Below are positions 2,633-63,644 of a stretch of 64,000 nucleotides of DNA, piece after piece. The position numbers were made by a program, and so were the translations under genes. The stretch covers positions 3,146-67,145 of the forward strand of contig DATGGK010000241.1 of the NCBI GenBank assembly GCA_035308565.1, in the 5' to 3' direction. The notes beneath the pieces are model-generated. The model did no database searches. It saw only the letters and a list, made by a program, of their open reading frames with translations, and was not told the DNA's origin. This DNA is from Planctomycetota bacterium. Lineage in GTDB: Bacteria > Planctomycetota > SZUA-567 > H5-PLA8. Within the stretch, counting starts at the first letter, position 1. Each line of letters opens with the position of its first letter.

Positions 2633-5600
2633 ATGAATACCACACGCATTCTGGCTGCACTCGCCATACTCCTGATTTCCGCCAGCGCCATGGGGGCGCA
2701 GACGGTGGTGGGGACGGACAGCGCCGCCACCGGCAATACCTTTGTTACGCGCGACGGCGGCGGCGGAGTGGCGGGGACGATCATCACGGCCACGACGCAG
2801 TTCAGCGGGCCGGCGACGGGGTTGACGGGGATTCCGGCGGGGCAACTCACGGGGCCATTGCCGGCGGGGACGACGGCGGCGGCGGGGACGTTGACCGGCA
2901 CTATTTTGGCATCGAATGTGGTGACTTCTTCGCTGACATCCGTTGGGACGTTGACGAATCTGAGCGTAACCAACCCGATTTCGGGGAGCGTCACGGGCAG
3001 CGCGGCGAGCTTCACGGGGAGCTTGGCGGGGGATGTGACAGGGACTCAAGGGGCGACCGTTGTAAGCCATGTTTCTGACGGTGCTTTGTCGAGCAATGTG
3101 GCGCTGCTTGGCGCGGCTAACGTCTTCACCGGCGCGACAAACTCGTTTAATGGCGGTGTGGTAAACATTGGAACGGCGGGCCATCCGGGGCAATTGGATA
3201 TTTACCCAAATGTCGCGAGTAACGGGCGATTGCAGTTTACGGTTCAGAACGGTTTGGCGGATACAGTCACGCAGGTTTACCTTAAGCCGCAAGCGGTTTC
3301 GCAATCGTACGGGATTCCGGACGCCGGCGCGCCGGCGGATTTTGCGATGACCGCGGGCGACCAGACGATTGGCGGAAACAAGACGTTCAGCAACACGATT
3401 CTGGGGAGCATCAACGGGAATGCGGCGACGGCGACGAAACTTCAGACGGCGCGGACGATCAACGGCGTGTCGTTTGACGGCACGGGAAACATCACGGTTA
3501 CGGCGGCGGCGGGGACGCTTACCGGCGGGACTTTGGCGAGCAATGTGTTGGCATCTTCGCTGACATCGGTTGGAACTTTGGCGAATTTAACGGTGACGAA
3601 CCCGATTTCGGGGAGCATTACTGGCAACGCGGCGACGGTGACGACGAATGCAAATTTGACGGGGCCGGTGACTTCGACGGGGAATACGACGGCGATTGCG
3701 AACAATGCGCTTTCGGAAACGATGGTCAGCGGGTTGACGACGGACCTTTCGGGCAAACAGCCGTTGAACGCCAATCTGACTGGCCTTTCAACACCCGCGT
3801 TGGCGGATGCGTCCACGGGCCTTGTTGCCAAAACGGCGACAGGCGGGGCGTTTACAACGCGCACGATCACGGGGACAGGCAGCCAGATTGATGTGGCGAA
3901 TGGCGATGGCGTCGGCAGCAATCCGACGCTGAGCATTTCAACGTCATACGCCGGACAGGCGAGCATCGTGACGCTTGGGACGATTACCAGTGGGATTTGG
4001 AACGCGGGGGCGGTGACATCGAGCGGGGCGATTACGAGCACGGGCGGCAACGTGGGCATTACCTCGCCTGGGACGAATAATGGGTTGAAGGTAACTGTCA
4101 CGAACACGACGGCAGACGACACTGCTGGCACGACGGTTAAATACGATCTGCTTAACAATGGCGGAACGCCGGTGTTTAAGGTGACTGCGGCGGGCGCGTT
4201 GACGGCTTCGAGCATTAGCACCACGGGCGGCTTGACGGTCAGCGATTTGACGGTGAATGGGAATACGATTTTGGGAACTGGAGGCGGTAATTCGATCACG
4301 TTCAATGCCAAGGCGGCGAGCAATTTGGACATGGGGACGAAGGCGATTACGAACATTGGGACTGGCGCTTCGGCGTTTACGGCGTCGGGCGGGTTGACGC
4401 TGAACGATGTGCTGACGGCAACGAACAGTGTGGACGGGGACACACAATTTGCGGGGCACTTCATTGGAAACAGCAGCAACCCCGGTGCGCCTGCGAACTA
4501 CACGTCTGCCGTTGTAAGGGTGGAGAACAACATCACGGGCGCAGGAAATGCCAACAGCCAGCCGAGCGCCGGATGGTTTTCGACGACGCAAGGGAGCAAC
4601 GGCGTCGCCGGCGGGGCACCGGTTGGCGTGTATGCGGAGACGAATACGTCAACAGTTGGGACGCAAGCGATCGGTTCGTTTAATCATGGTTCGACACATG
4701 CAGCGTCAAGCAATACGGCGGCCGTGGGAAGCTTTTCGTTGGCACAAGCTTATGTGGCAGGAACGGGAAAAATCGAAGGTGCGGCAGGCTGGGCCGATAA
4801 CGTCGGTGCTGGAAGTCTGAATTTGATTGGCGTGATTGGCGGCACGAATCCATTTGGAACGGGCTTAACAGCACCAATAAGCGTTGGTGGGTATTTTATT
4901 GGACAGACTGCAACAACACGGTTTGGATCTGTTGGACAAGTGGGTGGGTTCATTCATGACGCATGGAAAGACCCAGCACTGACAGGCAAGAGCGTTGCAG
5001 TGGTGGGGATGGATTACAATACATCGGGAACGCATCTGGCCGGATATTTTGGCGGGGATGTGACGGCAACGGGGACGCTGACGGCGGGGAGTTTCAGCGG
5101 TGCGGGCACTAACCTGACGGGGACCGCGGCGGGGCTGAGCATTGGGGGGAATGCTTCGACGGCGACGAAACTGGCGACGGCGCACACGATCAACACTGTG
5201 GCATTTGACGGCACTTCGGACATTGTGGTTACCGCGAATGCAAACACTTTGACGGGAACCGCGCTGCCTGCGCTGAGTGGCGCAGCCTTGACGAATTTGA
5301 CGGCGGCGAATATCAGCGCGGGTACTGCGCCGATCAGCATTAGCGGGACTGCCGCGACGGTGACGACGAATGCGAATTTGACGGGGGATGTGACGTCGGT
5401 CGGGAACGCGACGACGGTTGTCACAGTTGGCGGCTCGACGGCGGCACTCGTTCATTCGGCGGAGTTGGCGGCGAACGCGGCGACGAGCGCTGACACGGCC
5501 AGCACGATTGTGAAGCGTGATGCGTCGGGGAACTTCAGCGCGGGGGCGGTGACGGCGACCGGAAGCAGCGTCAGCATTGGGACGAGCGGCGCAACGACCG

Positions 5601-6802
5601 GCGCGCTAGTGCTGAACAACAGCGGTAATGCCTTCTCGACTACGGTGCAGCCCTCGACGGTTGGGGCGGCGCCGATTACGTTCACGCTACCGCCCGATAC
5701 TGGCGCGCCGAATCAATTCCTGGTTACGAACGGCGCGGGAATACTTAGTTGGATTACGTCAAACCCCTCGTCGGTCACCGCGACGGGGACGGCGGGCGGA
5801 GACTTGGCGGGGACTTACCCCAACCCGACGATTAACCCTGCTTCTTCCACGGGCAATAACATCATTGCCGCAGTGAATTTGGGGACGGCGGGGATCAAGA
5901 CGAATTCGATAACGGCGCAAACGGGGAGCGATTTGACGATTCAAGGCGCGCAGGCGGGGACGAGCCTTGTGCTGCGCAATTCCGATGGCAGCATTGCATT
6001 GGGAAATACGACGCATAGCAATCAGGGGAATGCGGTGCAGGTCGATGTGGCGAATGTGGGAGAAACGGATACGCCAAATCCTGGCGGCGAGATAAATCAG
6101 GGCGTCAATGTATTTGGAGAAACCAAAGGCGGTGCAACGCTGGCAATTTCGCTTCGCGGAAGGCTTGAGGCGAAGAATAGCGTCACATCGATGCGCGGAG
6201 TGGGCGGCAATTCGGTGATTAGCGCCGGCGGGTCAGTGTTGTCGAGTGCGACGGGCGGATATTTTAACGGTGCATTAAAGGGTGGATCGCTGGCGGCAAA
6301 TGCAATTATAACGGGAGTTTCGGCGGATGCGGAATTTGATAGCGGAACCAGCGCATCTTCAAATCAGTTCATTGGCGGCAGGTTCGGCGCAACTACTACG
6401 AACGCGTCGCCAGCGATTGGCGCGTTTGCTGCGGCGAGCGGTTCAACGCAAAGCAATACCGGCGTGGTGGGGCTTGTCAACGATCCCAGCTTGATAAACA
6501 TTGCGACGTTTTCGTTCACTTTACCCGCCGGCTTCAGTTCGGGGGTCACGGGATTTAATCCGAGTACGGCTGCGAACCAGTACGCTGGATATTTCAAGGG
6601 GAATGTGAATGTGACTAACCAAGTCAGTGCTGCGACTGTCAAAGTCGGCAGCGCGACTGTCTATAGTGGCGCGGGCGACCCAAATAATTCGGTGACGGGA
6701 AATCCGGGCGATATGTATTTGAATACGTCTGGCGGTGCTTTGACGACGCTCTACATCAAAGAATCCGGTTCTGGCACTAACACCGGATGGGTTGGGAAAT
6801 AG
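2633..6802 (+). CDS. 1389-aa secreted repetitive surface protein with phage-tail-fibre-type repeats
   Basis: Signal peptide MNTTRILAALAILLISASAMGAQ. Two copies of the tail-fibre repeat signature: NAATATKLQTARTINGVSFDGTGNITVTA (near nt 3416) and NASTATKLATAHTINTVAFDGTSDIVVTA (near nt 5165). Repeated modules GTLTGxxLASNVxxSSLTSVGTLxNLxVTNPISGSxTG. The C-terminal end is GDMYLNTSGGALTTLYIKESGSGTNTGWVGK. Confidence 0.85.
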   Translation: MNTTRILAALAILLISASAMGAQTVVGTDSAATGNTFVTRDGGGGVAGTIITATTQFSGPATGLTGIPAGQLTGPLPAGTTAAAGTLTGTILASNVVTSSLTSVGTLTNLSVTNPISGSVTGSAASFTGSLAGDVTGTQGATVVSHVSDGALSSNVALLGAANVFTGATNSFNGGVVNIGTAGHPGQLDIYPNVASNGRLQFTVQNGLADTVTQVYLKPQAVSQSYGIPDAGAPADFAMTAGDQTIGGNKTFSNTILGSINGNAATATKLQTARTINGVSFDGTGNITVTAAAGTLTGGTLASNVLASSLTSVGTLANLTVTNPISGSITGNAATVTTNANLTGPVTSTGNTTAIANNALSETMVSGLTTDLSGKQPLNANLTGLSTPALADASTGLVAKTATGGAFTTRTITGTGSQIDVANGDGVGSNPTLSISTSYAGQASIVTLGTITSGIWNAGAVTSSGAITSTGGNVGITSPGTNNGLKVTVTNTTADDTAGTTVKYDLLNNGGTPVFKVTAAGALTASSISTTGGLTVSDLTVNGNTILGTGGGNSITFNAKAASNLDMGTKAITNIGTGASAFTASGGLTLNDVLTATNSVDGDTQFAGHFIGNSSNPGAPANYTSAVVRVENNITGAGNANSQPSAGWFSTTQGSNGVAGGAPVGVYAETNTSTVGTQAIGSFNHGSTHAASSNTAAVGSFSLAQAYVAGTGKIEGAAGWADNVGAGSLNLIGVIGGTNPFGTGLTAPISVGGYFIGQTATTRFGSVGQVGGFIHDAWKDPALTGKSVAVVGMDYNTSGTHLAGYFGGDVTATGTLTAGSFSGAGTNLTGTAAGLSIGGNASTATKLATAHTINTVAFDGTSDIVVTANANTLTGTALPALSGAALTNLTAANISAGTAPISISGTAATVTTNANLTGDVTSVGNATTVVTVGGSTAALVHSAELAANAATSADTASTIVKRDASGNFSAGAVTATGSSVSIGTSGATTGALVLNNSGNAFSTTVQPSTVGAAPITFTLPPDTGAPNQFLVTNGAGILSWITSNPSSVTATGTAGGDLAGTYPNPTINPASSTGNNIIAAVNLGTAGIKTNSITAQTGSDLTIQGAQAGTSLVLRNSDGSIALGNTTHSNQGNAVQVDVANVGETDTPNPGGEINQGVNVFGETKGGATLAISLRGRLEAKNSVTSMRGVGGNSVISAGGSVLSSATGGYFNGALKGGSLAANAIITGVSADAEFDSGTSASSNQFIGGRFGATTTNASPAIGAFAAASGSTQSNTGVVGLVNDPSLINIATFSFTLPAGFSSGVTGFNPSTAANQYAGYFKGNVNVTNQVSAATVKVGSATVYSGAGDPNNSVTGNPGDMYLNTSGGALTTLYIKESGSGTNTGWVGK

Positions 6803-7033
6803 TCGTCGATGCTCGTCGTGCAACTTTTGCAGCCGTGCTCAAAAATCTACTGCTGAAGTGCGCGCATGGTGCAATTAATACAGCGTTTTCCCGTAAGGGT
6901 GTCTGAAAAGCCGCCGCATTAACACTTGGTGCAATTAATTAACGGCGAGTCGAAAGTTGATGGTCTAAATGCGCGCGTGGTGCAATTAATTTAACGTGCG
7001 GGAGCAAGGGCGGATGGAAAGCCAGAGGTCAGA

Positions 7034-7308
7034 GGTCAGTTAGCAGGCAGACAGGAATGTCTGCCCCGCCAATTACGCGCTTGGTGCAATTAATTTAGAG
7101 TATGAGGCGCGGGTTTTGTTTCGCCCTTTCAGGGCTTTGGGGCAATCGGGGGAACTAAACCCAGGCCTGCGCTGCGCTTTGGCTTGGGCTATCGTAGTTT
7201 GCCCCTTTGGGGCACGTACGGGGGTAGGGTTTATGGGTCGGTTAGCAGGCAGACAAGAATGCCTGCCCCACCATGAACGCTCTTGGTGCAATTAATATAG
7301 AGTATTGG
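7034..7308 (+). repeat. pair of ~74-bp direct repeats (7034-7107 and 7236-7308), each with a GGCAGAC..GTCTGCC-type hairpin plus one TGGTGCAATTAAT motif
   Basis: Manual alignment: GGTCAGTTAGCAGGCAGACAGGAATGTCTGCCCCGCC..CTTGGTGCAATTAATTTAGAGTATGAGG versus GGTCGGTTAGCAGGCAGACAAGAATGCCTGCCCCACC..CTTGGTGCAATTAATATAGAGTATTGG. Confidence 0.8.
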
Positions 7309-7352
7309 ACTTCTGCTATTGCCGCTCCCTTGCGGTCGCGGCTCGCAACACG

Positions 7353-7368
7353 TGGTGCAACTTTTGCA
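7353..7368 (+). promoter_or_regulatory. possible sigma-54 (-24/-12) promoter TGGTGCAACTTTTGCA
   Basis: GG and GC sit at the canonical spacing of the TGGCAC-N5-TTGCA consensus. The other motif copies lack the GG or the GC. No obvious gene follows for ~700 bp. Confidence 0.25.
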
Positions 7369-7496
7369 ACGAAAATGAATGCGAGAGGTTTTCCGCCTGA
7401 AGGCGGGACTACGAACGGGCACGCGTTGTGCAATTTTTGCAGAGGAGACTGGAGACGGGAGACCGGAGCCAAACGCGGAAAAAGCCTCATCTCCAA

Positions 7497-7664
7497 CAGG
7501 ATGTGCAACTTTTGCAACGGGAGATTGCCGCTTTACTGGCGTGCGCGACTCTGAGACGGGCTCGGAGAGCCGTCCTACTTTGAGCGCCCACAGGATGTGC
7601 AACTTTTGCAACGGGATTTTGCCACCTACTGGCGTGCGCGGCTCTGGAATCGAACGGCTCGGAG
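7497..7664 (+). repeat. pair of ~72-bp direct repeats (7497-7567 and 7591-7664)
   Basis: CAGGATGTGCAACTTTTGCAACGGGAgATTGCCgCtTTACTGGCGTGCGCGaCTCTGaGA..GGCTCGGAG is repeated with scattered substitutions. Confidence 0.8.
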
Positions 7665-8094
7665 GGTTCATTAGTTCGCCGCTTTGGGGCTTTCGGTGAA
7701 TTTCTCAATCGTATACCCAGGGGCTTCGCGGGTTACGCTGCGCCTTGGGCTTTCGAAGTTCGCGCCGTTGGCGCTGAAAAGTAAATTGATAACGTCCGAT
7801 CGAAAGGCGATTCTCGCGCGAGCACGGTGGGCGCGCGATTGATAGGACTTATAGGGGCTATGGGACCCATGGGCCAAAGGCAATGCGCGCGTTTGGGGCG
7901 ACGCCCGCAGCGGGAAGAAAATGGCAAAGTGAAAGGCCTTGGCATTTGCAATTCTGCCTATTGAAAAACATCTCAAAAAAGAGTAAAGTATGGTTCGTTG
8001 AAATTTTCAATTTGATGGGCGAAACAATGCAGGCGGGATGCCTGCGTCATACTTGAACGGAGCGGGAGCTCCGTTCTACTTTTGGAGAAGACAC

Positions 8095-8874
8095 ATGTCT
8101 AGGTACAGTGCGGCGATTATGGTGGCGAGCTTGATGTTTGTGGGCGGGGCTGGCTTCGCGGCGGAGGGCGACAAGGACAAGGACAAGCCCAAGCCGGCTG
8201 AGGCGCCTTTGGACGACGCGGCGGCGAAGAAGGCGTTTGAAGAGGATTACGAGGCGGGGTCTTCGGCGGCGGCGGACAAGAAGTGGGACGTGGCGGTGAA
8301 GAAATTGACCGACGCGCTCAAGGCGCTGGGCGAGCGCGCGCACGTGAACAAGTCCACGGCGACGGTGCTGCTGAGCAAGGCTCAGAAGGCGCTGTACAAG
8401 GACGACGCGATGAACACCGCCAACGAATTGAAGCGGCTCAAGCAGTGGGCGGAGGCCGAGGAGGCGTACCGGCTGGTGATCAACGTGACCGGCGAGACGG
8501 AGTCGCTGAAGAAGAGCATCGCGGACTGCCGCGTGGCGCTGGAGTTGGAAAGCCCCGAGCTGAAGAAGGCCAACGAGTTGTACAAGGCCAAGAAATGGCA
8601 GGAGTCGATCGACGCGTACAACACTGCGGCGGAGAAGCTGGGGACGCTGCGGCCGATCCGCGAGGGGTTGAACGACGCGAAGGTGAACATCGAGGCCGAG
8701 GGCTTGATGAAGAAGGCGACGGACGCGCTGATGAAGAAGGATTGGGAAGCGGCGTTCGACACGTACCAGAAGGTCGCGAAGATGATCGGCGAAAACGACG
8801 AAGTGAAGAAGGGCATCGCGGCGGCTCAGGCGGGGTACGCGGAAGAGCATAAGGGGGAGAAGAAGCAGCCGTAG
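8095..8874 (+). CDS. secreted helical-repeat (TPR-like) protein
   Basis: ATG at 8095 follows GGAG. Signal-like MSRYSAAIMVASLMFVGGAGFAA. Repeated K-K-W-x-E/A-A-x-x-x-Y helical hairpin pattern (KKWDVAVKKL, KQWAEAEEAY, KKWQESIDAY, KKDWEAAFDTY). Confidence 0.8.
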   Translation: MSRYSAAIMVASLMFVGGAGFAAEGDKDKDKPKPAEAPLDDAAAKKAFEEDYEAGSSAAADKKWDVAVKKLTDALKALGERAHVNKSTATVLLSKAQKALYKDDAMNTANELKRLKQWAEAEEAYRLVINVTGETESLKKSIADCRVALELESPELKKANELYKAKKWQESIDAYNTAAEKLGTLRPIREGLNDAKVNIEAEGLMKKATDALMKKDWEAAFDTYQKVAKMIGENDEVKKGIAAAQAGYAEEHKGEKKQP

Positions 8875-63411: not shown

Positions 63412-63644
63412 AGCGCGGTGCGGATTCTTGGGTTGGGCTGGGTGCAATTGAGTTCTTCGCTGTTGCTCCTGCCGTTCATGCGATTTTATCTTTGCGAATT
63501 GCTGCTTGTGGCGGCTGACAGCCCGTGTTACTTAACTATGTGCAATTTTGCCCGCGATTGCGAAATGGTGTTTGGCGGTGTATTGGAAAGCGTCGATAAA
63601 AGTTCGGGCCGGCGGGGACGCCGGCGGTACAGGGGTTAACACCA

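Follow-up and report, generated by a model that had tools for sequence, protein, structure and literature searches.

An apparently undescribed family of GTGCAA-box repeat arrays between unrelated genes of uncultured soil Planctomycetota

The window, meaning the whole 64-kb stretch of Planctomycetota DNA analysed here, contains a gene for a 1389-amino-acid repetitive fibre- or adhesin-like protein (2633–6802, + strand), followed on the same strand by a gene for a 259-amino-acid TPR protein (8095–8874). No Pfam family and no full-length orthologue were found for the fibre-like protein. Other neighbours are a sulfotransferase, pyrF and a ClC channel. The 1.2-kb gene-free stretch between the two genes is a real tandem array, with ten copies of a directional box of about 28 bases. 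The original prediction that this interval is non-coding was borne out: three independent assemblies, each matching the window at 100% identity, have no gene call across it, none of its eight ORFs has a Pfam match, and no 3-nt periodicity is seen in the box spacings (p = 0.72). The longest ORF (146 amino acids) has no credible homologue beyond itself among 1.84 billion representative proteins; its single weak match (E = 2.6e-07, 21% identity), to a protein of 2083 amino acids, is one that we take to be spurious.

Two forms of the core motif account for the ten copies. In the 64-kb window TGGTGCAATTAAT has exactly five copies on the + strand, at 6867, 6927, 6978, 7082 and 7284, against 0.02 expected from shuffles, and GTGCAAYTTTTGCA also has exactly five, at 6818, 7355, 7428, 7503 and 7597, against 0.08. 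The starts first given for TGGTGCAATTAAT were right, and the last three for GTGCAAYTTTTGCA were each one base too high. The degenerate form GTGCAAYTWWT has 10 matches in 64 kb, all on the + strand within 6818–7610, where shuffles give 0.26, while TGCAA-N3-TTGCA is restricted to the five GTGCAAYTTTTGCA sites. The ten co-oriented motifs of the original prediction are thus found, confined to the interval and far above the frequency that composition alone would give, and the view that they are a selected sequence element and not a coding artefact is supported.

All ten boxes lie on the + strand at irregular spacings of 41–202 nt. Box 1 (6810–6839, GTGCAACTTTTGCA form) has the G of its GTGCAA at 6818, 16 nt past the upstream stop codon. 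Box 2 (6861–6890) has the TGGTGCAATTAAT form, and boxes 3 (6921–6950), 4 (6972–7001), 5 (7076–7105) and 6 (7278–7307) have the TTAAT form. These are followed by box 7 (7347–7376, TGGTGCAACTTTTGCAAC), box 8 (7420–7449, GTGCAATTTTTGCA), box 9 (7495–7524, ACAGGATGTGCAACTTTTGCAACGGGA) and box 10 (7589–7618), which opens the final unit of the array. Internal duplications are visible, here and in other arrays of the family. In the window, box 5 lies within a 70-nt duplication (7034–7103 and 7236–7305, 87% identical), and units 9 and 10 are duplicates that differ by a 1-nt indel just 3' of the box.

Across 47 copies in 11 arrays, the boxes share a 28-nt logo with asymmetric flanks, rCAC-n-WT-GTGCAA-YTWWT-GCA-y-GGAA, with GTGCAAYTWWT as its core. 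The hexamer GTGCAA is unchanged in 46 of the 47, and in the half-palindrome GTGCAA-N3-TTGCAC the left arm is invariant and the right arm degenerate. Substitutions in this 3' arm are mostly C-to-T, as are 10 of the 12 changes at one column, preserving G.U pairing on the + strand. No covariation could be measured in the box hairpin, its outermost pair is random, and the TTAAT variant is incapable of forming it. The TTAAT form is a minority across the family (9/47, five of these in the window) and is interspersed with the TTTTGCA form, so that the proposed scheme of five plus five copies of two variants does not hold as an organising principle. A at position -5 and T at -1 occur jointly in 26 copies, resembling a weak -10 hexamer. 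Clusters of spacings lie near 52, 63 and 73 nt, and there is a weak in-phase 10.5-nt periodicity (r = 0.32, p ~0.03 uncorrected) that would be lost on correction for the 15 periods tested. The box itself has no Rfam match. CsrA-like GGA sites were considered and rejected, ACAGGATG being present in three copies only.

Behind each box lies a variable body of 25–170 nt, frequently bearing a reusable stem-loop module, so that a unit is laid out as box, hairpin and short tail. Four such modules are found on the + strand of the window array: H4, a GCAGGCAGACA-GGAA-TGTCTGCC stem-loop (7043–7065, second copy at 7245–7267); H2, GCCGCTCCCTTGCGGTCGCGGCTCG (7321–7345); H1, UUCCGCC-UGAA-GGCGGGA plus CUACGAACG (7391–7419); and H3, CTGGCGTGCGCGRCTCTGRR (7536–7555, second copy at 7629–7648). 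Identical body modules recur at different loci. H2 is also present in the arrays of L079, L111, L119 and L178, and L168 has a single copy on the opposite strand at a distance of 4 kb from its array; H3 is common to L066 and L079; and H1 is found in L066, L119, L121, L140, L168 and L178. Elsewhere H1 sits 10–19 nt upstream of start codons. Its stem is constant while its loops vary (UAAA, UGAA, CGAA, AAAA), and it has a GGTGG variant, but neither H1 nor any other helix shows covariation or compensatory change. Two elements on the + strand resemble the two-hairpin motif Acido-Lenti-1 (RF01687), a multi-copy and at times tandem family. One (7160–7214) lies within unit 5 and is sub-threshold in Rfam; the other (7716–7775; 22.9 bits) lies past the final unit. 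The window scores for this family (22.9, 14.8 and 12.7 bits) are all under the gathering threshold of 37 bits, while L119 has a true match of 47.4 bits, 450 nt upstream of its array. Real and near-threshold motifs alike are co-oriented with the arrays in the same regions. The original statement that the spacers carry GC hairpins is correct as a description, but most units fold like shuffles (z from -1.8 to +0.6), and the hairpins lack U-tracts and are mostly not unusually stable. A long structured RNA was rejected, since the folding z is about -1 on both strands and Rfam yields sub-threshold Acido-Lenti-1 matches only.

Downstream of the array, on the + strand, comes a box-free interspersed element (7808–7942), of which 7842–7942 is 73% identical to L079 and 7808–7861 is 80% identical to L066. 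It is followed by the only consensus promoter of the interval, a sigma-70-like TTGAAA-17-TAAAGT (7961–7989, + strand), which is outside the array and is probably the TPR gene's own; between it and that gene there is a leader hairpin (8055–8076). Homologues of the TPR protein in other Planctomycetota (L004–L010) have no array or box upstream, and no box was found with the homologues of the fibre-like protein (L213, L214), so the array is tied to neither gene. A replication origin was rejected, as there is no skew switch and no dnaA context, and GC skew tracks gene strand. At the far end of the window is a degenerate solitary box, GTGCAATTTTGCC (63532–63561, + strand), with one T missing and a score of 17.7 bits, compared with 19.6–41.5 bits for array copies. 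A weaker relic, GTGCAATTGAGTT, is found at 63442, 98 nt upstream of the solitary copy (63539–63552). The original prediction named this eleventh copy as an argument for a promoter-type site. The copy is there, with a DUF1501 gene 93 nt downstream, but the argument is weak because single copies are nearly absent: a PWM scan found one in ~170 kb, and a sigma-factor or operator motif is expected mostly as singletons.

At least ten further arrays, with 2–6 units each, were found. One is in a MAG of the Planctomycetota, the other nine are on contigs of four metagenomes, and the window shares its sample with three of these contigs. Four array-bearing contigs are from Ga0209579, the window's own included, and four are from Ga0070731. 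Across the family, arrays have 2–10 units. Their contexts are unrelated to each other, for example T2SSE/T2SSF, COX1/CtaA, CasE-like/Cas1, Cpn60/Cpn10, GNAT and a small TAT protein, and the region upstream of rpsO-pnp. In these genome fragments all 47 boxes are co-oriented within their loci, with no inverted copies seen. Among the matches listed, 11 of 11 arrays have the same orientation as the downstream gene, though GC skew and coding strand are confounding factors for orientation relative to genes, and the 11 arrays are probably from only four or five organisms, so that copies are not independent. The first box starts 14–18 nt past the upstream stop codon in four arrays, and the last is within ~90 nt of a start codon in about half of them (L111, L119, L121, L140, L168 and L180). 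A PWM scan of 217 loci gave no additional family members, matches in a scan of genome contigs were mostly CRISPR arrays of other phyla, and among the metagenomes no overlapping contigs were found that would give orthologous arrays. A phage link was rejected, as no family member was found in IMG/VR, where the matches were phage origin iterons whose palindrome is similar.

The rpsO locus shows how such an array relates to the gene beside it. Four genomes share a conserved promoter and leader here, but the array is present only in L178, upstream of both, and the orthologous loci L215, L216 and L217 (78–86% PNPase identity) have no box in 9–22 kb. This indicates that the arrays are accessory insertions and not the gene's own control region. 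The same short non-coding unit is thus found at unrelated intergenic loci, several of them from one metagenome, with variable copy number and with presence or absence at orthologous loci, as is the case for interspersed repeats. The interval is very probably a modular interspersed repeat array. Full-text literature searches gave no description of a GTGCAA-box repeat, and these repeats apparently constitute an undescribed family, located between unrelated genes in uncultured soil Planctomycetota.

Several known systems resemble these arrays in part. The BIME/REP elements of Escherichia coli are short non-coding modules, variable in order and number, at many intergenic loci per genome; in BIMEs hairpin modules alternate with a module that binds a host factor, and the elements are accessory, species-specific and often found in operons or after stop codons. 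The GTGCAA arrays are similarly modular, accessory and dispersed between genes, but with no apparent sequence similarity. REPs alternate in orientation, whereas GTGCAA boxes and modules are all co-oriented in the sense of the gene; the palindrome is the most conserved part of a BIME, and here it is the non-hairpin, directional box; and no link to a RAYT-type transposase was seen in the genome fragments. The MIRUs of mycobacteria are tandem 40–100-nt units, dispersed between genes, often within operons, oriented with transcription and variable in copy number. The GTGCAA arrays are also tandem, dispersed, oriented with genes and variable in number. However, MIRU units are conserved over their full length and have small ORFs that overlap the flanking stop and start codons, while in the GTGCAA units ~28 nt are conserved, the bodies differ and the frames are inconsistent. 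BOX of Streptococcus pneumoniae, with its modular A-B(n)-C structure, variable number of internal modules and dispersed intergenic location, differs in phylum and apparently in sequence and has fixed terminal modules, whereas each GTGCAA unit opens with the same box and terminal modules are absent. Acido-Lenti-1, with its co-oriented sub-threshold copies in the region of the window array and the true match near L119, is one body module of these arrays and not the box itself.

A lineage-specific modular repeat of the BIME/MIRU/BOX kind, in which the box would be a protein recognition site, is the explanation we prefer, although taken as a whole we put it at somewhat under an even chance. Its mechanistic part, that the box is a protein-binding DNA site, is more tentative still. 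Arrays grow by local duplication, and a single sequence-specific protein would recognise the box, which is why it would be kept constant. Most likely the box would act as double-stranded DNA, the array being a platform of several sites that influences transcription initiated close by or running through it, by insulation, as a roadblock or by punctuation between neighbouring genes. Recognition at the DNA level is suggested by the pairing of an invariant arm with a degenerate one, where no covariation is possible, by folding that is no stabler than in shuffles on either strand, and by the clustered spacings with their weak, uncorrected 10.5-nt phasing. An operator array and tandem small transcription units, both put forward in the original prediction, may also be compatible with the sequence. 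Counting against the preferred explanation, no candidate binding protein for the GTGCAA box was found, the strict co-orientation and the G.U-preserving C-to-T changes are at least equally compatible with a role at the RNA or single-strand level, and the proximity of the first box to a stop codon and of the last to a start codon suits a transcript-level or promoter role.

The array could instead act as RNA, co-transcribed with its neighbours, an alternative that we consider unlikely but the strongest of those remaining. The box, folded into a small GUGCAA/UUGCAC hairpin around an AU-rich centre, would be the site of an RNA-binding protein or ribonuclease, and the hairpins of the bodies would be stabilisers. 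Polycistronic transcripts would thus be punctuated or tuned by the array, much as REP/BIME elements do this in E. coli mRNAs. It is consistent with this that all arrays are in sense orientation, that several are inside operon-like pairs (T2SS E/F, COX1/CtaA, cas genes), that the first box closely follows a stop codon in four of them, and that sigma-70-like promoters are found upstream of the L079 and L060 arrays. The bias of 3'-arm substitutions towards C-to-T, the constant stem of H1 with its variable loops and GGTGG variant, and the co-oriented Acido-Lenti-1 motifs point the same way. However, compensatory change is seen in no helix, the box hairpin has a random outermost pair and is not possible for the TTAAT variant, folding energies are ordinary for the whole array and per unit, and the invariance of one arm points to recognition of sequence and not of shape.

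A promoter function is slightly less probable still. Here the box would be recognised by an alternative sigma factor or in some unusual way, each unit would give a short RNA ending in the body hairpin, and the downstream gene would be transcribed from the last unit, by analogy with the NsiR1 tandem small-RNA array of Nostoc. NsiR1 of Nostoc/Anabaena likewise has co-oriented tandem intergenic units with a conserved promoter-proximal motif and a hairpin, but it occupies one locus per genome, with ~120-nt units, a recognisable promoter and a U-tract terminator; the GTGCAA arrays occupy many loci, with 50–75-nt units, no -35/-10 architecture and no U-tracts. The orientation shared with the downstream gene in 11/11 arrays fits a promoter, as do the nearness of the last box to a start codon in the six arrays named above, the order of box, hairpin and short tail, and the weak -10-like positions 5' of GTGCAA in 26 of 47 copies, which in L119 were read as CATAAT immediately 5' of the box. 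Against this, upstream -35 matches equal those of random positions, and downstream of GTGCAA or TTGCA there is no conservation 17 nt away, where a -10 element would be expected. The sigma-54 pattern GG-N10-GC (TGGCAC-N5-TTGCW) is in register in one of 47 copies, namely box 7 of the window. In addition, solitary copies upstream of genes are nearly absent, and there are no U-tract terminators in the array. In the window and in L178 the downstream gene retains a canonical promoter of its own behind the array, as by sequence reading it probably does in L060, and canonical sigma-70-like promoters precede the L079 and L060 arrays as if these were read through. Sigma-54, an NtrC half-site, sigma-70 with its -35 and -10 hexamers 16–18 nt apart, and an ECF-like -35 (AAC) were each rejected because registers or conservation do not fit.

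Classical arrayed elements, whether a degenerate CRISPR, replication iterons, a partition centromere or a row of tiny genes, are very improbable. A unit length of 50–75 nt is CRISPR-like and one array adjoins cas1, but the spacers vary in length (25–170 nt) and are found again at other loci, and 10 of the 11 arrays have no cas gene in the locus sequence. CRISPR was accordingly rejected, given units of 41–202 nt with only ~28 nt conserved, and only L111 has cas genes, ten others having unrelated neighbours; L111 carries a separate repeat array, read as CRISPR from its translated repeats. The palindrome GTGCAATTTTTGCAC does occur as an iteron spaced at 20–25 bp in the unrelated contigs L097, L132, L163 and L177, where adjacent ORFs have, judged by eye, N-terminal likeness to phage replication-organiser proteins. 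Iterons and R1 parC-type centromeres are direct repeats of a short protein-binding sequence, and the arrays likewise consist of direct repeats of a short sequence, but GTGCAA spacing is neither regular nor contiguous. The plasmid centromere or iteron organisation raised in the original prediction is further unsupported in view of the chromosomal housekeeping contexts (pyrF and ClC in the window), with no rep or par gene seen near any array, and of the many loci, several within one sample and four array-bearing contigs in each of two metagenomes, with no family member found in viral contigs. As for tiny genes, (A/T)TG precedes TGC in 34 of 47 boxes and one frame reads Met/Leu-Cys-Asn-Phe-Cys, but G is never observed at position -2 although GTG would be a start codon, and 11 of 29 spacing pairs are in frame by eye. 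Coding was rejected on these grounds: frames (CNFC, WCN-stop, VQL(L/I)) vary between copies, ORFs enter the next box in differing frames, periodicity and homologues were not found, and the duplicated units 9 and 10 are separated by their indel. The 6-amino-acid mini-ORF MRAWCN occurs twice.

A bolder reading, and an unlikely one, is that the box is the site of a dedicated lineage factor, which could be an alternative sigma, an accessory protein of RNA polymerase, or a protein that binds DNA or RNA, and that the arrays are mobile regulatory cassettes copied among unrelated genes. As tandem promoters, small-RNA factories or transcription insulators, such cassettes would rewire expression. Planctomycetota are regarded as a phylum without classical operons.

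Little is known of how Planctomycetota regulate their genes and organise their genomes, and the carriers of these arrays are uncultured. A 28-nt box that is invariant across loci and genomes while its surroundings drift, and that is strictly oriented with transcription, is usable as bait for a binding factor, and the arrays are variable-number markers for strain typing in metagenomes. The reuse of hairpins, Acido-Lenti-1 included, reveals how this lineage assembles its intergenic DNA. If the box is a portable promoter or insulator, the family would be an example of regulatory DNA that spreads as a repeat, and if it is neither, a new example of the BIME/MIRU class beyond the usual model phyla. 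Should a dedicated factor exist, the arrays would be a mobile regulatory module that rewires expression in Planctomycetota.

The intergenic region between the genes for a 1389-aa fibre-like protein (2633-6802) and a TPR protein (8095-8874) contains an array of ten tandem units (6818-7610), each with a directional box built around GTGCAA and a variable body. The sequence is 100% identical in three independent assemblies (ENA, JGI and Logan). On the + strand, TGGTGCAATTAAT occurs five times (6867, 6927, 6978, 7082 and 7284; 0.02 expected from shuffles) and GTGCAAYTTTTGCA five times (6818, 7355, 7428, 7503 and 7597; 0.08 expected). The common core GTGCAAYTWWT has 10 matches in the 64 kb, every one within 6818-7607, against 0.26 expected. 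The original prediction of ten co-oriented motifs, five of each of two variants, therefore holds far above shuffle expectation; seven of its motif starts are exact and three are one base too high. Both variants exist, but they are the ends of a continuum across the 47 copies aligned here. The interval is also non-coding, as had been proposed: no gene is called between its two neighbours in the ENA, JGI or Logan assembly, its eight ORFs have no Pfam match, the longest has no homologue among 1.84 billion representative proteins, and the box-to-box spacings show no codon periodicity. The upstream 1389-aa protein (2633-6802) is highly repetitive and lacks a full-length orthologue; its similarity to phage tail-fibre and endosialidase-chaperone-type proteins, and to further large repeat proteins of many phyla, is confined to short stretches (2-24% of its length, 33-88% identity).

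A three-box pattern scan of 185,579 species, each represented by a single genome, gave one relevant match: an array of three units in the Planctomycetota MAG GCA_038227045.1 (L060). This MAG also holds the nearest homologue of the TPR gene in the window. Five copies of the 22-bp iteron CGTGCAACTTTTCGGAGTGGTC in a Chthonomonadales MAG (L014, 4470-4630) fitted the search pattern by chance. Scanning metagenome contigs with a two-box pattern yielded at least nine further arrays (L066, L079, L111, L119, L121, L140, L168, L178 and L180). Position weight matrix (PWM) scans of all 217 loci added no family members, and found one solitary box in about 170 kb (window 63540). L119, L168 and L178 share their source, the JGI metagenome Ga0209579, with a contig that matches the window exactly, and L066, L079, L111 and L140 derive from Ga0070731, so a single genome, or a small number of close ones, carries several arrays. 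For the PNPase of L178, all of the nearest named relatives are Planctomycetota MAGs.

In the alignment of 47 copies the box spans about 28 nt and reads r-C-A-C-n-(A/T)-T followed by G-T-G-C-A-A-(C/T)-T-T-T-T-G-C-A-y-G-G-A-A. GTGCAA is unchanged in 46 of them. The half-palindrome GTGCAA-N3-TTGCAC has a degenerate right arm, perfect in nine copies, and TGCAA-N3-TTGCA is kept in 25; the TTAAT form accounts for nine copies, five of them in the window. The flanks are asymmetric, and the element is therefore directional. Units are 41-202 nt long (mostly 48-77); in each, the box is followed by a variable body and then by a short tail ending in the upstream part of the next box. Bodies draw repeatedly on a few hairpin modules, namely H1 (UUCCGCC-NRAA-GGCGGGA, then CUACGAACG), H2 (GCCGCUCCCUUGCGGUCGCGGCUCG), H3 (GCGUGCGCGGCUCUGGA) and H4 (GCAGGCAGACA-GGAA-UGUCUGCC), all present in the window and the first three also at other loci. 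An exact 24-nt copy of H2 lies in opposite orientation within a 3192-aa ORF, 4 kb from the array of L168 (6421-6444, + strand, original coordinates). The H1 hairpin (CCGCC-NRAA-GGCGG plus GACUACGAAC) is found 10-19 nt 5' of the start codon in four genes unrelated to one another (L066 8104-8127, L121 3759-3782 and, in oriented coordinates, L119 9814-9837 and L168 3031-3054), once without any GTGCAA box, and may be an independent 5'-UTR element.

Two further hairpin pairs in the window array (7716-7775 and 7160-7214) are sub-threshold likenesses of Acido-Lenti-1, an RNA that to our knowledge has been described only from Acidobacteria and Lentisphaerae. A true match (RF01687, 47.4 bits) lies on a Planctomycetota-like contig (L119 6042-6087, - strand), co-oriented with the array and 450 nt upstream of it. 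Acido-Lenti-1 behaves here like a building block of a mosaic repeat; its discoverers' alignment shows it as multi-copy and sometimes tandem (PMC2864571). Just upstream of this element and array are six tandem paralogous small genes of 110-172 aa, each starting MATVPRRGRFQIHLSTAIVMMFVAGG (L119 6285-8588, - strand). Duplication is how arrays grow: window positions 7034-7103 match 7236-7305 at 87% identity, units 9 and 10 are copies of each other, and L066 has 2.5 repeats of a 135-nt double unit. A boxless intergenic element with TATAGGGGCTATGGGACCCATGGGCC recurs at 73-80% identity across unrelated loci (window 7808-7942, L079 11791-11886 on the - strand, L066 4719-4772).

By Pfam, arrays lie between T2SS-E and T2SS-F, COX1 and CtaA, Cpn60 and Cpn10, GNAT and a small TAT-signal protein, M24 peptidase and a TPR protein, CasE-like and Cas1 (L111), and upstream of rpsO-pnp (L178); the window array separates the fibre-like and TPR proteins. 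Array direction is that of the downstream gene in 11 of 11 cases, and a co-directional upstream gene precedes the array in 9 or 10; in L079 that gene is probably divergent, both candidate ORFs being without a Pfam match. GC skew is positive in array orientation at all 11 loci, and in the window it follows gene strand, so that replication and transcription orientation are inseparable. In the presumed leader of the window's TPR gene are two hairpins (8029-8076), the second of which (8055-8076) scored terminator-like, is followed by TACTTTTGG and may be an attenuator.

Orthologous loci differ in array content. The rpsO-pnp loci of three relatives (L216, L215 and L217; PNPase identity 86, 84 and 78%) have no boxes in 9-22 kb, all four genomes can be aligned across the rpsO promoter and leader, with the L178 array upstream of that promoter, and no arrays occur at homologues of the window's TPR gene. 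Arrays are thus accessory, and dispensable for the neighbouring genes. In this alignment of four Planctomycetota (L178 4440-4720), the promoter (CTTGCA...TATC) is conserved, as is the leader, in which the blocks GGGGCGCGCC, GGGAAGCGCGCC and AGGAGTGAG are invariant; it may be an autoregulatory leader of ribosomal protein S15.

What holds the box constant would be recognition by one sequence-specific factor, and the arrays could, tentatively, be a protein-binding platform on DNA. Three features lean toward duplex DNA: only one of the two arms is invariant, the other being degenerate; there is no signal of stability (folding z about -1 on both strands, -1.8 to +0.6 per unit, which also argues against a large structured RNA) or of covariation (no compensatory changes were seen); and the spacings group around 52, 63 and 73 nt and are weakly phased at 10.5 nt (p about 0.03, uncorrected). 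An RNA cis-element is rather doubtful, and tandem promoters or small transcription units are a shade more so. A role in the transcript or as promoter would fit the strict orientation, C-to-T changes that keep G.U pairing on the + strand, and the position of arrays right after stop codons (first GTGCAA 14-18 nt past the stop in four) and right before start codons (last box at most about 90 nt away in about half). Neither a sigma-54 nor a sigma-70 promoter fits the box: GG-N10-GC of sigma-54 occurs in one of 47 copies, and for sigma-70 the -35 is not enriched and no conserved -10 lies at the right distance. A sigma-70-like promoter of the downstream gene lies 3' of the array in the long intergenic regions of the window and L178, and probably also in L060 (TTGACG-16-TATGCC, read by eye); canonical promoters lie 5' of the arrays in L079 and L060. 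What is left of the probability falls to a selfish or neutral repeat, or to something else.

The plasmid centromere or iteron of the original prediction is not borne out: spacing is irregular, loci are many, the surroundings are chromosomal (pyrF, ClC) with neither a rep nor a par gene nearby, and no family member was found in IMG/VR. Dense runs of a similar, perfect palindrome, GTGCAATTTTTGCAC, at 17-57-bp spacing on unrelated contigs (L097, L132, L163, L177, L201 and L083) are probably origin iterons distinct from the box family; in L097, L132, L163 and L177, at 20-25 bp spacing, they overlap or adjoin ORFs with an N-terminal sequence (...FGWHKKRDKLSLSQL...) similar, by eye, to phage replication-organiser proteins. 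CRISPR arrays are rejected, since bodies are unequal in length and recur between loci, and no cas gene is present at 10 of the 11 loci as examined. The other, L111 (8.6 kb, Ga0070731_10007341), is a CRISPR-Cas locus with a three-unit array inserted between the CasE-like gene and cas1; a separate downstream repeat array, reading as repeated ORFs, was taken for a putative CRISPR array. Peptides fail on inconsistent reading frames among boxes.

The element is an interspersed repeat, modular and specific to its lineage, that is strictly sense-oriented and expands locally. It is of the same kind as BIME, MIRU and BOX, but is built in a way of its own, from an invariant directional box and an exchangeable body. 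The box matched no Rfam family and no description was found in the full-text literature, in a comparison that covered these two sources. Sequence comparison makes a solid case for a new, verifiable repeat family whose putative recognition box is unusually sharp, in a phylum that has been little studied.
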